DNA from: a virus
Lineage: Duplodnaviria; Heunggongvirae; Uroviricota; Caudoviricetes
IMG/VR virus record: IMGVR_UViG_2690316188_000001
Length of the DNA stretch: 6,448 nt
Direction: 5' to 3' (one strand)
In this document: piece by piece, positions 1 through 6,448 of the stretch
Layout of the letters: every line of letters begins with the position of its first letter
Position numbering within the stretch: the stretch's first letter is position 1
Notes under the pieces: generated by a model
Database searches by the model: none
What the model was told of the DNA's origin: nothing
Seen by the model: only the letters and a program-made list of their open reading frames with translations
Made by a program: the position numbers and the translations under genes

Positions 1-74
1 ACCACGAAGCCGCACGACTCCGCTGGCGCACATCGCCGGGCGTGCGCCAGAATCGCTGATTCTGTCTGTGTCAT
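1..74 (-). CDS. K: Tail tip assembly protein K, N-terminal 25 codons only (3' end lies beyond the window start)
   Basis: Reverse complement of 1-74 translates from the ATG at 74-72 as MTQTESAILAHARRCAPAESCGFVV, matching the lambda gpK N-terminus as I recall it. It starts 5 nt downstream of the L stop (80-82). Confidence 0.8.
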   Translation of the reverse strand, partial: MTQTESAILAHARRCAPAESCGFV

Positions 75-79
75 GGGAT

Positions 80-778
80 TTACTGCGAAAGTTTGTTAAT
101 GGAAAGGAAGCCGCCAAAGTTGCCGACGTTATTGCGGAACTTACAACCGCTCAGGCATTTGCTGCATTTATCCTTCGTGATATCGGACGTTGGCTGGTCA
201 TATTCATCCGCGACAGCCGGACCGCTATAACCGCACTCGTCACCGCGATAGGTCCAGGTGCAGGTGTTGGCCAGCATGATACGTCCCGGAAAAACAGCGC
301 CATCCGTTTCCGTCGGCGTGGACAGTACAAAGGAGGCACTCACCGCGCTCAGTTCGCTGCACTGCTCAATGCGCCAGCGGCTGATCACCTCCTGCTCCGG
401 ATCGGCGTAACTGTTTCCGTTGACGAAGTTCACCGCATCCAGAAAACGGGCGTAAACCTTACGCCGGACCACCGTTCCGCCGACCAGACTCTGCATATCT
501 TCCGCCATCCCGGTGACCATACCGTACAGGTTAGAAACCGTCAGCGTGGGGCGCGTACTGGTGCCTTTGCCATTCAGTTCAAAACCGCTCCCCTGAATGG
601 GATACGGCTGATACTGTCGCCCCTGCCAGGTGACCGGCTCACCTTTTTCGTTCTGCTCATTACAGAAAAAATAACGTTCTCCACCGACCTCTGTCAGGTC
701 GATTTCCCAGAGCACCACGCTGGCCGACTGCTCCGCACGGGTGCATTCATTCAGTGTTTCCTGCCGGATATCCTGCAT
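80..778 (-). CDS. L: Tail tip protein L (gpL), 232 aa
   Basis: ORF 80..778 (-) begins MQDIRQETLNECTRAEQSASVVLWEIDL and ends FRNNVGNFGGFLSINKLSQ, matching lambda gpL in length and sequence. It has a Cys-rich C-terminal region (CTWTYRGDEC...KDKCSKCLSGC). Its ATG (778-776) overlaps the M stop by 1 nt. Confidence 0.93.
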   Translation of the reverse strand: MQDIRQETLNECTRAEQSASVVLWEIDLTEVGGERYFFCNEQNEKGEPVTWQGRQYQPYPIQGSGFELNGKGTSTRPTLTVSNLYGMVTGMAEDMQSLVGGTVVRRKVYARFLDAVNFVNGNSYADPEQEVISRWRIEQCSELSAVSASFVLSTPTETDGAVFPGRIMLANTCTWTYRGDECGYSGPAVADEYDQPTSDITKDKCSKCLSGCKFRNNVGNFGGFLSINKLSQ

Positions 779-1107
779 CAGTTCACCACCTGTTCAAACT
801 CTGCGCTGAACTCAACACGCAACATACTGACCCGCGACGACCATTTTGCGCAGGTCACCTTTATCTGCCGCCACTCATAAGGCGGCGTCCACAGAAAGGA
901 TTTCCAGCCCCCGTGCTCTTCCAGAAACGACTCCAGTACCGTGGCCTCCTCACGGGGGACAGAAAGCGTCACGCTGTACGTTTTCAGGTTGGCATTCAGC
1001 CCGGCAGGCGCTCGCTGAGAATAGCCATCACCAAAGCGCACCTTTCTTACAGAAGGGACCGAAGCCACATCCATACCGGGTTTCACTTTCCAGCGGAAGG
1101 TCTTCAT
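778..1107 (-). CDS. M: Tail tip assembly protein M (gpM), 109 aa
   Basis: ORF 778..1107 (-) begins MKTFRWKVKPGMDVASVPSVRKVRFGDGYSQ, matching lambda gpM in length and sequence. Its ATG (1107-1105) overlaps the H TGA stop (1106-1104) as ATGA. A GGAGGTGG Shine-Dalgarno-like sequence lies just upstream within the end of H. Confidence 0.93.
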   Translation of the reverse strand: MKTFRWKVKPGMDVASVPSVRKVRFGDGYSQRAPAGLNANLKTYSVTLSVPREEATVLESFLEEHGGWKSFLWTPPYEWRQIKVTCAKWSSRVSMLRVEFSAEFEQVVN

Positions 1108-4100
1108 CGTCCACCTCCGGAGAACAGGCCACCATCACGCATCTGTGTCTGAATTTCATCACGGGCACCCTTGCGGGCCATGTCATACACCGCCTTCAGA
1201 GCAGCCGGACCTATCTGCCCGTTCGTGCCGTCGTTGTTAATCACCACATGGTTATTCTGCTCAAACGTCCCGGACGCCTGCGACCGGCTGTCTGCCATGC
1301 TGCCCGGTGTACCGACATAACCGCCGGTGGCATAGCCGCGCATCAGCCGGTAAAGATTCCCCACGCCAATCCGGCTGGTTGCCTCCTTCGTGAAGACAAA
1401 CTCACCACGGTGAACAATCCCCGCTGGCTCATATTTGCCGCCGGTTCCCGTAAATCCTCCGGTTGCAAAATGGAATTTCGCCGCAGCGGCCTGAATGGCT
1501 GTACCGCCTGACGCGGATGCTCCACCACTGGCAGCACCGCCAATGGCGCTGCCGATACTCCCGACAATCCCCACCATTGCCTGCTTAAGCAGAATTTCTG
1601 TCATCATGGACAGCACGGAACGGGTGAAGCTGCGCCAGTTCTGCTCACTGCCGGTCAGCATCGCCGCCATATTTTGTGCAATACCATCAAAGGTCTGCGT
1701 GGCTGCACTTTTAACCTGCGACATACTGTCCGTGGCGCTCTCTTCCCACTCACTCCAGCCGGACTTCAGGCCTGCCATCCAGCTCCCGCGAAGCTGGTCT
1801 TCAGCCGCCCAGGTCTTTTTCTGCTCTGACATGACGTTATTCAGCGCCAGCGGATTATCGCCATACTGTTCCTTCAGGCGCTGTTCCGTGGCTTCCCGTT
1901 CTGCCTGCCGGTCAGTCAGCCCCCGGCTTTTCGCATCAATGGCGGCCCGTTTTGCCCGTTGCTGCTGTGCGAATTTATCCGCCTGCTGCGCCAGCGCGTT
2001 CAGGCGCTCCTGATACGTAACCTTGTCGCCAAGTGCAGCCAGCTGGCGTTTGTACTCCAGCGTCTCATCTTTATGCGCCAGCAGGGATTTCTCCTGTGCA
2101 GACAGCTGGCGACGTTGCGCCGCCTCCTCCAGTACCGCGAACTGACTCTCCGCCTTCCACAAATCCCGGCGCTGCTGGCTGATTTTCTCATTNCATCACG
2201 GGCACCCTTGCGGGCCATGTCATACACCGCCTTCAGAGCAGCCGGACCTATCTGCCCGTTCGTGCCGTCGTTGTTAATCACCACATGGTTATTCTGCTCA
2301 AACGTCCCGGACGCCTGCGACCGGCTGTCTGCCATGCTGCCCGGTGTACCGACATAACCGCCGGTGGCATAGCCGCGCATCAGCCGGTAAAGATTCCCCA
2401 CGCCAATCCGGCTGGTTGCCTCCTTCGTGAAGACAAACTCACCACGGTGAACAATCCCCGCTGGCTCATATTTGCCGCCGGTTCCCGTAAATCCTCCGGT
2501 TGCAAAATGGAATTTCGCCGCAGCGGCCTGAATGGCTGTACCGCCTGACGCGGATGCGCCGCCACCAACAGCCCCGCCAATGGCGCTGCCGATACTCCCG
2601 ACAATCCCCACCATTGCCTGCTTAAGCAGAATTTCTGTCATCATGGACAGCACGGAACGGGTGAAGCTGCGCCAGTTCTGCTCACTGCCGGTCAGCATCG
2701 CCGCCATATTTTGTGCAATACCATCAAAGGTCTGCGTGGCTGCACTTTTAACCTGCGACATACTGTCCGTGGCGCTCTCTTCCCACTCACTCCAGCCGGA
2801 CTTCAGGCCTGCCATCCAGCTCCCGCGAAGCTGGTCTTCAGCCGCCCAGGTCTTTTTCTGCTCTGACATGACGTTATTCAGCGCCAGCGGATTATCGCCA
2901 TACTGTTCCTTCAGGCGCTGTTCCGTGGCTTCCCGTTCTGCCTGCCGGTCAGTCAGCCCCCGGCTTTTCGCATCAATGGCGGCCCGTTTTGCCCGTTGCT
3001 GCTGTGCGAATTTATCCGCCTGCTGCGCCAGCGCGTTCAGGCGCTCCTGATACGTAACCTTGTCGCCAAGTGCAGCCAGCTGGCGTTTGTACTCCAGCGT
3101 CTCATCTTTATGCGCCAGCAGGGATTTCTCCTGTGCAGACAGCTGGCGACGTTGCGCCGCCTCCTCCAGTACCGCGAACTGACTCTCCGCCTTCCACAAA
3201 TCCCGGCGCTGCTGGCTGATTTTCTCATTNNNNNNNNNNNCATCACGGGCACCCTTGCGGGCCATGTCATACACCGCCTTCAGAGCAGCCGGACCTATCT
3301 GCCCGTTCGTGCCGTCGTTGTTAATCACCACATGGTTATTCTGCTCAAACGTCCCGGACGCCTGCGACCGGCTGTCTGCCATGCTGCCCGGTGTACCGAC
3401 ATAACCGCCGGTGGCATAGCCGCGCATCAGCCGGTAAAGATTCCCCACGCCAATCCGGCTGGTTGCCTCCTTCGTGAAGACAAACTCACCACGGTGAACA
3501 ATCCCCGCTGGCTCATATTTGCCGCCGGTTCCCGTAAATCCTCCGGTTGCAAAATGGAATTTCGCCGCAGCGGCCTGAATGGCTGTACCGCCTGACGCGG
3601 ATGCGCCGCCACCAACAGCCCCGCCAATGGCGCTGCCGATACTCCCGACAATCCCCACCATTGCCTGCTTAAGCAGAATTTCTGTCATCATGGACAGCAC
3701 GGAACGGGTGAAGCTGCGCCAGTTCTGCTCACTGCCGGTCAGCATCGCCGCCATATTCTGTGCAATACCATCAAAGGTCTGCGTGGCTGCACTTTTTACC
3801 TGCGACATACTGTCCGTGGCGCTCTCTTCCCACTCACTCCAGCCGGACTTCAGGCCTGCCATCCAGTTCCCGCGAAGCTGGTCTTCAGCCGCCCAGGTCT
3901 TTTTCTGCTCTGACATGATGTTATTCAGCGCCAGCGGATTATCGCCATACTGTTCCTTCAGGCGCTGTTCCGTGGCTTCCCGTTCTGCCTGCCGGTCAGT
4001 CAGCCCCCGGCTTTTCGCATCAATGGCGGCCCGTTTTGCCCGTTGCTGCTGTGCGAATTTATCCGCCTGCTGCGCCAGCGCGTTCAGGCGCTCCTGATAC

Positions 4101-5749
4101 GTAACCTTGTCGCCAAGTGCAGCCAGCTGGCGTTTGTACTCCAGCGTCTCATCTTTATGCGCCAGCAGGGATTTCTCCTGTGCAGACAGCTGGCGACGTT
4201 GCGCCGCCTCCTCCAGTACCGCGAACTGACTCTCCGCCTTCCACAAATCCCGGCGCTGCTGGCTGATTTTCTCATTCGCTCCGGCATGCTTCTCCAGCGT
4301 CCGGAGTTCTGCCTGAAGCGTCAGCAGGGCAGCATGAGCACTGTCTTCCTGACGATCGCCCGCAGACACCTTCACGCCGGACTGTTTCGGCTTTTTCAGC
4401 GTCGCTTCATAATCCTTTTTCGCCGCCGCCATCAGCGTGTTGTAATCCGCCTGCAGGATTTTCCCGTCTTTCAGTGCCTTGTTCAGTTCTTCCTGACGGG
4501 CGGTATATTTCTCCAGCGGCGTCTGCAGCCGTTCGTAAGCCTTCTGCGCCTCTTCGGTATATTTCAGCAGTGACGCTTCGGTATCGCTCTGCTGCTGCGC
4601 ATTTTTGTCCTGTTGAGTCTGCTGCTCAGCCTTCTTTCGGGCGGCTTCAAGCGCAAGACGGGTCTTTTCACGATCATCCCAGTAACGCGCCCGCGCTTCA
4701 TCGTTAACAAAATAGTCATCCTTGCGCAGATTCCAGATGTCGTCTGCTTTCTTAAACGCAGCCTCTGCCTTAATCAGCATCTCCTGCGCGGTATCAGGAC
4801 GACCAATATCCAGCACCGCATCCCACATGGATTTGAATGCCCGCGCTGTCCTGTCTGCCCAGGTCTCCAGCGTGCCCATGTTCTCTTTCAGGCGGCGGGT
4901 CTGGTCATCAAACCCTTTCGTTGCGGCTTCGTTCGCCGCCTGCAATGCCCCGGCTTCATCGCCGGAACGCTGCAACTGAGCAACATACGCAATCTGCTCC
5001 GCCGTCACGTTATGGAACTGGCGCGCCATCGCCGTCAGCCCCGACGTCGGGTCAGTGGTCAGCTTCCCGAAGGCTTCAGCGACCTTGTCCACCTCCACAC
5101 CGGATGCAGAAGAGAAACGCGCCACACTCTGGCTGATGGACGCAATCTGAGCCTCACCGCTTACCCCCGCCTTAACCAGTGCACTGAGTGACTCGCTGGT
5201 CTGGTTAAACGTCAGCCCTGCCGCCTGCCCGGCTCTGGACAGGACCAGCATACGATCTGCCGTCAGACCCGACTGATTACCGGAAAGGACCAGCGTTTTG
5301 TTGAAATCGGACAGGGTTGAGTTACCCTGATACCAGGCATACGCCAGCGCACCGGTCGCCACCGCCAGCGAGGTGGCCCCGACCATCGGCAGGGTGATCG
5401 CACCGGCAAGCCCCCGGAACATGGGGATCATCCCGCCGAAGGAGTCCTTAACCTGACCACCCTGTTGCAGCAGGATCAGCCACGGGCTTTGCCCGCCTGC
5501 AAGCTGCGTGGCCACGTCGGTGAACTGTGCAGGCAGCATACGCATGGCGGCTTTATACTGCCCGACGGAAATCCCCGCTTTCTGTGCAGCCAGCGCCTGT
5601 CGGCTCAGCGACTGTTCAACGACTGCCGCTGTTTTTTTCGCATCAGTTTCCGTACCGGAAAAATGACGCCTGACTCTGGCCATCTGCTCGTCAAATCTGG
5701 CCGCATCCAGACTTAAATCAACGACCAGATCGCCTACCGGTTCAGCCAT
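1104..5749 (-). CDS. H: Tail tape measure protein H (gpH); as given, the reading frame is disrupted by a tandem triplication of a 1036-bp internal segment and by N gaps
   Basis: The ATG at 5749-5747 is preceded by AGGAGG (plus-strand 5758-5763) at 6-nt spacing. The N-terminus MAEPVGDLVVDLSLDAARFDEQMARVRRHF and the C-terminus EIQTQMRDGGLFSGGGR (stop 1104-1106) match lambda gpH. The unique 5' part (4277-5749, 1473 nt) plus one repeat unit (1036 nt) plus the unique 3' tail (1104-1156, 53 nt) total 2562 nt, i.e. 853 codons plus stop. The track's 1249-aa ORF (2000..5749) contains X residues from the Ns and ends in a frameshifted copy. Confidence 0.85.
1157..2192. repeat. Tandem repeat copy 1 of the H internal segment; 1036 bp, contiguous with the native H 3' end (1104-1156)
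   Basis: Aligns with copy 2 at a +1037 offset. It differs by a cluster of six substitutions at 1521, 1524, 1529, 1530, 1531 and 1536, changing GGAVGGG to GGAASGG in the Gly-rich segment. It is read in the native C-terminal frame (track ORF 1104..2162). Confidence 0.9.
2193..2193. other. Single ambiguous base (N) exactly at the copy 1 / copy 2 repeat junction
   Basis: An 'n' in the sequence at 2193, between ...gattttctcatt and catcacgggcaccc.... Confidence 0.95.
2194..3229. repeat. Tandem repeat copy 2 of the H internal segment; 1036 bp
   Basis: Flanked by the single N at 2193 and the 11-N run at 3230-3240. In frame with copy 3 because 1036 + 11 = 1047 = 349 x 3. Confidence 0.9.
3230..3240. 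other. Run of 11 N at the copy 2 / copy 3 repeat junction (assembly or scaffold gap)
   Basis: nnnnnnnnnnn at 3230-3240, between the same flanking sequences as at 2193. Confidence 0.95.
3241..4276. repeat. Tandem repeat copy 3 of the H internal segment (first copy in H reading direction); 1036 bp, contiguous with the unique 5' part of H
   Basis: Aligns base for base with 2194-3229 at a +1047 offset, except four substitutions at 3758 (c vs t), 3797 (t vs a), 3867 (t vs c) and 3919 (t vs c). In H these encode NEKISQQRRDLWK...DMARKGARD. Confidence 0.9.
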
Positions 5750-6448
5750 ACCGGACTCCTCCTGCGATCCCTTCTGATACTGTCATCAGCATTACGTCAT
5801 CCTCCGTCATGTCCGCCACATCCGGGGAAGCGGGGATAACTTCATTCCCGTCCGGGCCAAAGCGGACACCTCCGGCAAGCCCTGCCGCTTTCTGCATCAG
5901 CACATCATCTTCAGGCTCTTCGTCAGCCTCGCGCCGGTTAAGCAGACTGAAATCCAGCGGATGCATATCCGGATCGCTGAAAAACAGGCTGAGCACGGTG
6001 TACGTCAGCCCGGAAAAGTGCATATCCAGCAGAACATCATGAAAATAATGGGTACTGTAAAAGCGGTGCCAGTCGGCATACTCCGTGGATGACATCCCGG
6101 CAAGCATGGCACGCCAGTCGGGTCGCCCCATCTCACGCGCCAGTTTCAGGGCAAAACTCAGCTCACCGTCGAACACTTTCCCGCAGAAACAGGCTCTGCG
6201 GGCCCGGCGTCCTCTGCCTGTTCAGGGGCATTATTCACCACAAACTCATACATACCAGACAGCCGGTACACCACGTTTTCAGCATGAGAAATTGCCTCTG
6301 TGGGCCAGGTGGTAAGCACTTCCTGCTCAATCTGTTTAACGGCTTCATTCATGGAAGGCTGCTTTGTCTTCTGCGGATGGTTATGCCACAGGGACATCGC
6401 CACCAGAAACGCGCCGGTTCTGATGGCGTCTTCCACAGTAAACTTCCG
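5742..6448 (-). CDS. GT: Tail assembly chaperone G-T fusion (gpGT), made by programmed -1 ribosomal frameshift at 6182-6176; partial at the 5' end
   Basis: The -1 frame after the slippery heptamer reads GKVFDGELSFALKLAREMGRPDWRAMLAGMSSTEYADWHRFY...GIAGGVRYG with stop at 5744-5742, matching the lambda T region. This frame has no ATG of its own (the track's leading M is a GTG at 6176-6174). Confidence 0.85.
5758..5763 (-). promoter_or_regulatory. Shine-Dalgarno sequence (AGGAGG) for H
   Basis: Plus-strand cctcct at 5758-5763 is AGGAGG on the minus strand, 6 nt upstream of the H ATG (5749-5747), within the 3' end of the T frame. Confidence 0.7.
6158..6448 (-). CDS. G: Tail assembly chaperone G (gpG), C-terminal 96 codons; start lies beyond the window end
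   Basis: Reverse complement read from 6448 gives RKFTVEDAIRTGAFLVAMSLWHNHPQK...AGPAEPVSAGKCSTVS with stop TGA at 6160-6158, matching the lambda gpG C-terminus. Confidence 0.88.
   Translation of the reverse strand, partial: RKFTVEDAIRTGAFLVAMSLWHNHPQKTKQPSMNEAVKQIEQEVLTTWPTEAISHAENVVYRLSGMYEFVVNNAPEQAEDAGPAEPVSAGKCSTVS
6176..6182 (-). promoter_or_regulatory. Slippery heptamer G GGA AAG for the G/GT -1 programmed frameshift
   Basis: Plus-strand ctttccc at 6176-6182 is GGGAAAG on the minus strand. In the G frame it sits as G-GGA-AAG (Gly-Lys) seven codons before the G stop. This is the known lambda G-T recoding site. Confidence 0.85.

Follow-up and report, generated by a model that had tools for sequence, protein, structure and literature searches.

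Several near-identical lambdoid prophages per E. coli genome, which swap short patches of their tail genes, are already well known. Tail length scales with the tape measure, each residue accounting for approximately 0.15 nm (Katsura and Hendrix 1984, cited in PMC5099701), and the lambda tape-measure protein, gpH, is cleaved to gpH* in its glycine-rich C-terminal region (PMC12617516). On the assembly side, the Velvet/SSPACE/GapFiller tools of the Sanger pipeline are greedy, may produce false joins, and connect contigs with N gaps (PMC5320598), while gap-filling tools leave gaps open in repeats (PMC3446322). Here, we analyzed a 6448-bp stretch of viral DNA (hereafter, the window) in which the 3′ third of a lambda-type tape-measure gene appears three times.

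The window comprises the entire record CYAR01000065.1 (GCA_001283805.1), a stand-alone scaffold of a draft whole-genome assembly, and its shortness (6448 bp) is typical of a repeat-bounded fragment. The assembly accession gave no literature match and was absent from the text of the PMC5320598 supplement. Aligned on the reverse strand, the window showed approximately 99% nucleotide identity to positions 9843–14206 of phage lambda (NC_001416), and it was 2084 bp longer than this lambda stretch because a 1036-bp unit was present three times. The only genes found in the window were L, M, H, T, and G, all on the reverse strand. Gene L (80–778; 232 aa; PF05100) and gene M (778–1107; 109 aa; PF05939) were assigned as minor tail proteins by their ORFs, the lambda annotation, and these Pfam domains. 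Gene T (5742–6176; 144 aa) was assigned as a tail assembly protein by its ORF and the lambda annotation, and gene G (6158–6448; lambda annotation) is cut by the scaffold end. Two parts of the tape-measure gene H were present once: the 3′ end, to the left of the repeat (1104–1156; amino acids 838–853 and the stop codon), and the 5′ part (4277–5749; amino acids 1–491), the first base of which, 4277, is a common C/T polymorphism. The H gene showed approximately 99% identity to lambda H and was placed between T and M, as in a lambda gpH-type tape measure. In the Pfam analysis, PF09718 (Tape_meas_lam_C) was detected on a 224-aa fragment of H, and an H homolog from another locus (L084) carried PF06791 (TMP_2) together with PF09718. 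Judged by its sequence, the locus is an ordinary lambda-type tape-measure gene.

The divergence from lambda was very uneven along the block. Position 822 in gene M (A, with G in lambda) was the sole difference in the 1156-bp left flank, and 27 differences fell within 4277–5714 of the H 5′ part. A GenBank record named "Campylobacter phage CJLB-4" (MW057783.1; 48,361 bp) was 99.2% identical to the window, equal to lambda, and its genes carry lambda-style names; this record looks like lambda and not like a Campylobacter phage, and contamination or a mislabel may be responsible.

Tandem Repeats Finder, whose longest period is 500, reported no repeat, and the 1036-bp repeat was instead mapped by a repeat search and a script. 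The unit was exactly 1036 bp long in each of the three copies (copy 1, 1157–2192; copy 2, 2194–3229; copy 3, 3241–4276; all on the reverse strand) and corresponded to lambda 13050–12015, covering gpH codons 492–837. The preliminary description had held that the three copies are not identical, and exactly the ten sites that it listed were found to differ. Copy 1 differed from copies 2 and 3 only at 1521, 1524, 1529, 1530, 1531, and 1536. The comparison of the copies and the codon effects both bear out the earlier claim of six substitutions within 1521–1536 that turn GGAVGGG into GGAASGG; in lambda gpH numbering, the amino acid changes were V712A and G713S, and Gly codons 710, 714, and 715 changed synonymously. 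Copy 3 differed from copy 2 only at 3758, 3797, 3867, and 3919, four scattered sites of which two, as had been stated, are nonsynonymous (S628N at 3867 and V611I at 3919), the changes at 3758 (Q664) and 3797 (V651) being silent. With the cluster sites written first and the scattered sites second, copy 1 carried the haplotype TATGGA/TACC and copy 3 the haplotype GGCAAC/CTTT, which is common in nature. Copy 2 (GGCAAC/TACC) combined the cluster state of copy 3 with the scattered-site states of copy 1, a haplotype that is rare in nature. Compared with lambda, copies 2 and 3 had lambda's cluster state, and copy 3 had the lambda base at three of the four scattered sites. The chance of six substitutions falling within 16 of 1036 bp is approximately 6 × (16/1036)^5, or about 5e-9, which indicates that the cluster represents one multi-base event or patch.

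Runs of N, which the preliminary description did not mention, separate the copies. Junction 1 is a single N (2193) and gives a period of 1037, which breaks the H reading frame; junction 2 consists of eleven N (3230–3240) and gives a period of 1047, which keeps the frame. The gene calls of the scaffold for H were a 1249-aa product with X residues and, separately, the 224-aa fragment, which is C-terminal. In a protein look-up, the fragment had no occurrence beyond CYAR01000065.1, and the 1249-aa product was absent from the protein cluster collection searched. When H was collapsed to any single copy, an intact 853-aa ORF with no internal stop was obtained. Copy 1 with both flanks was identical to a prophage of E. 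coli Z1323HEC0108: the left flank, copy 1, and the right flank aligned with 0 mismatches over window 1–6199 (6199 bp), and H of this prophage is an ordinary single-copy 853-aa gene in a finished genome.

A junction query of 140 nt, made of the last 70 bases of the unit followed by its first 70, was searched with a coverage threshold of ≥80%. This coverage was reached in none of the 3709 finished E. coli genomes and none of the 140 phage records that contain either half. Tandem units were likewise absent from all 80 IMG/VR loci that include the corresponding part of H. When IMG/VR and the JGI metagenomes were scanned for the junction pattern, no match was returned, a weak result given that the matching of stored N is uncertain. 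Neither these scans nor one of GTDB representative genomes for the copy 1 cluster led to the source record, which was identified by matching the 1249-aa product exactly in a protein look-up. A genuine duplication would be recognized by a sequenced junction from unit end to unit start, by an equal period as produced by unequal crossing-over, and by the same arrangement in independent finished sequences. Both junctions were N, the two periods were 1037 and 1047, and the arrangement was seen in none of the finished sequences. A scaffolding artefact would be recognized by gap characters at every copy boundary of a draft record, by the return of a finished-genome sequence once the extra copies are removed, and by the identity of every copy with a known single-copy allele in a host species where multi-copy homologs are usual; all of these were observed. 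The triple repeat fails every runnable test of tandem amplification and passes every available test of a scaffold artefact, and the tandem arrangement is very probably not real.

Each of the three copies was present in finished E. coli genomes. As a single copy inside an ordinary tape-measure gene, copy 1 was matched at 100% over 1036 bp in 5 finished genomes, copy 2 in 1 (B19374) of 5426, and copy 3 in at least 12. In several genomes with these alleles, the neighbouring sequence was 99.4–99.5% identical to the right flank of the window. Of the 5426 finished genomes, 4066 contained homologs of the unit, with a per-genome median of 2 places and no more than 9. The finished genome of 14EC007 carries two lambdoid prophages, 314 kb apart, with identical 1156-bp left flanks; between their 1036-bp units there are 7 differences, two of which fall at variable sites of the window (1674 and 1713), and one of the two units is exactly copy 1. 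This pair demonstrates that several near-identical lambdoid prophages do occur in one host and that they differ at the same polymorphic sites. Among the natural alleles compared, the states of the ten sites were combined in many ways, as expected of standing polymorphisms.

Three further observations were made on natural relatives of the window. In 14EC007, the tape-measure gene at the locus with the exact copy 1 allele (L089; NZ_CP024131.1 3107720–3109837) is annotated without its N terminus, and an IS1A transposase gene lies just past the truncation point. A similar chaining was seen in the IMG/VR record IMGVR_UViG_2671180724_000001 (L002), which is 100% identical to window 618–2192, spanning all of copy 1; a single N at 4577 is followed there by a second lambdoid tail module that starts mid-H and is approximately 87–93% identical to the window. 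In gene G, after the exact match that ends at 6199, ten sites within 6200–6365 of the window differ from Z1323HEC0108, and the state at 6356–6365 resembles that of the natural alleles L068, L062, L042, and L020. Either a natural mosaic joint or, close to the end of the scaffold, a switch from one co-resident prophage to another could account for this shift.

The unit is bordered on both sides by common natural polymorphisms. The adjoining TTT on the left (1154–1156) was missing in 21 of 86 natural alleles, and the adjoining base on the right (4277) was C in 34 alleles and T in 51. Approximately 3–4% of columns are that polymorphic, and the probability that both edges abut such sites by chance is about 0.001–0.004, a rough figure because the sample is non-independent. 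This position of the edges fits contig or edge extension that stops where co-resident copies disagree. Approximately 20 of the 86 natural alleles carry a densely diverged patch at 1137–1209 (gpH approximately amino acids 820–842) that includes the 3-bp deletion at 1154–1156 and straddles the left edge. The alleles lacking TTT also differ at 1161–1164, and a fork would be expected further inside the unit; the exact left edge at 1157 is left unaccounted for by the sampled alleles. Natural mosaic breakpoints were also considered as the cause of the edges and were rejected, as the patch at 1137–1209 predicts no fork exactly at 1156/1157. No population-wide homology break was found at 2192, and only the C/T site was found at 4277.

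We consider it highly probable that the three H copies are variants of related prophages or mixed strains that were strung across N gaps by a scaffolder. The sample would have contained two or more versions of the H 3′ third, nearly identical to each other and most likely carried by co-resident lambdoid prophages of an E. coli-type genome that was assembled from short reads. The assembler would have yielded separate pieces, namely the left flank with copy 1, copy 2 alone, and copy 3 with the right flank, all of which would end at the same two positions. The scaffolder, failing to merge these overlapping pieces, would have placed them in a row with Ns as spacers. In reality, each prophage would then carry the unit only once, the ten differences would be genuine natural polymorphisms between H alleles, and copy 2 would be either a true third allele or a chimera produced by mis-phasing of copies 1 and 3. 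We infer this order of assembler and scaffolder events, as well as the sharing of one genome by the alleles; a plain de Bruijn assembler would collapse the identical stretches in the unit, so pair-based resolution or edge extension must be assumed. The preliminary description had proposed that variants were concatenated, their source being a mixed population or several near-identical lambdoid prophages. This proposal gains support from the N junctions in a short draft scaffold, from the natural single-copy H that remains after collapse with each copy an exact natural allele, from the junction occurring in none of the finished genomes and phage records searched, and from the two near-identical units of 14EC007.

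The alleles stacked in this way might instead come from a mixed culture or a contaminated library holding two to three E. coli strains with one lambda-like prophage each. Nothing in the window separates within-genome from between-genome variation, and each allele is found in different finished strains with almost identical flanks. However, several homologous H segments per genome are normal (median 2, up to 9), a near-identical allele pair occurs together in the finished genome of 14EC007, and a strain mixture would normally fragment the whole assembly; we regard this origin of the alleles as unlikely. A genuine tandem triplication of H codons 492–837 in one prophage, whose copies later diverged as gene conversion brought in sequence from sister prophages and whose junctions the assembler left unresolved, is very improbable. 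Such an event would agree with the joining of the same two unit ends at both junctions, but the junction Ns are unequal in length and one of them is out of frame. The unit edges share 3 nt (ATT), a match expected by chance at about 1/64. In lambda and TP901-1, in-frame changes in tape-measure length are known to make the tail longer or shorter (Katsura and Hendrix 1984, again cited in PMC5099701), and if the triplication were true and in frame, the tape measure would be approximately 690 aa longer and the tail roughly 100 nm longer. Among the 3709 E. coli and 140 phage records, however, the junction was found in no finished genome or phage, and a natural prophage matches a single copy with its flanks exactly. 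Each of the three copies is identical to a known single-copy allele, which would require three separate full-length conversions.

The stacking of prophage alleles, which we prefer, is compatible with two readings of copy 2. All ten sites were two-state, and copy 2 was a one-switch mosaic, equal to copy 3 at 1521–1536 and to copy 1 at the other four sites. The switch falls in the 138-bp interval 1536–1674, the only interval longer than 100 bp, whereas the other adjacent variable sites are at most 70 bp apart; this spacing would fit short reads that phase sites within, and not between, the two groups. As a refinement of the stacking explanation, there may have been two true alleles only, one of the copy 1 type and one of the copy 3 type, with copy 2 a phase-switch chimera produced during assembly or gap filling. 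The rarity of the haplotype, which none of 82 IMG/VR alleles and just one of 5426 finished genomes carried, is in keeping with this reading, and a scan of IMG/VR for it gave no exact full match, returning only L082 with a different mosaic (GGCAAC/TTTC). On the other hand, the exact copy 2 allele exists naturally in the B19374 prophage; leaving aside the final 250 bp of the window, this prophage and the window flanks differ at only two sites. Given the B19374 allele, copy 2 may be a genuine third allele or may have arisen by recombination in vivo, and we hold the chimera reading only tentatively, at slightly less than even chances.

The six-substitution cluster (1521–1536, reverse strand), which lies in the Gly-rich region of gpH, is a common mosaic polymorphism of natural alleles. 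Across the 86 natural alleles, the 16-bp patch was found clean, in an otherwise lambda-like sequence, in copy 1, L002, L005, L084, and L085. Alleles of approximately 96% identity had the patch together with linked flanking variants at 1458, 1464, and 1515. Partial forms (GATGGA, GGTGGA, GACGGA, GACGGC, and GGCAAA) were also found, and one allele had a short deletion at the patch. The mixture of synonymous and nonsynonymous changes and the combinations of patch states support short-patch exchange between H alleles in the population. The earlier suggestion of patchwise recombination between H alleles is supported at the population level, where the patch occurs clean, with linked flanking variants, and in part. 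Recurrent change in the Gly-codon-rich stretch could contribute to the variation of the patch. A hydrophobic stretch is weakly predicted at residues 691–712, next to the patch in the glycine-rich C-terminal region of gpH, and this segment evidently tolerates variation. A diversity-generating retroelement was considered as a source of the cluster and rejected. Read on the coding strand from copy 2 to copy 1, the cluster changes were G>T, T>C, T>C, G>A, C>T, and C>A, which are not confined to the adenines of one repeat, and the window contains no reverse transcriptase gene.

The main value of these results is a data-quality warning. The scaffold would mislead annotators by presenting a 1249-aa "giant" tape-measure protein with X residues and a truncated 224-aa fragment, and it would suggest an intragenic amplification, which is almost certainly not real. 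The finding amounts to an artefact on top of known lambdoid mosaicism.

Compared with the G-T-H-M-L block of lambda, the window has the same gene order and gene lengths once a single copy of the unit is kept, with about 36 further substitutions outside the unit; its nearest complete match is the prophage of E. coli Z1323HEC0108, not lambda. Like scaffolding or gap-filling artefacts of draft short-read assemblies, in which Ns bridge overlapping or paralogous contigs, the window has N at each junction, a short scaffold, and a duplicate that collapses to a known single-copy locus, although three stacked pieces with identical ends are rarer among scaffolding artefacts than a simple two-copy overlap. 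Compared with the mosaicism of lambdoid tail genes, the window shows nothing unusual, and the 16-bp patch is a compact example of this mosaicism in a Gly-codon-rich stretch.
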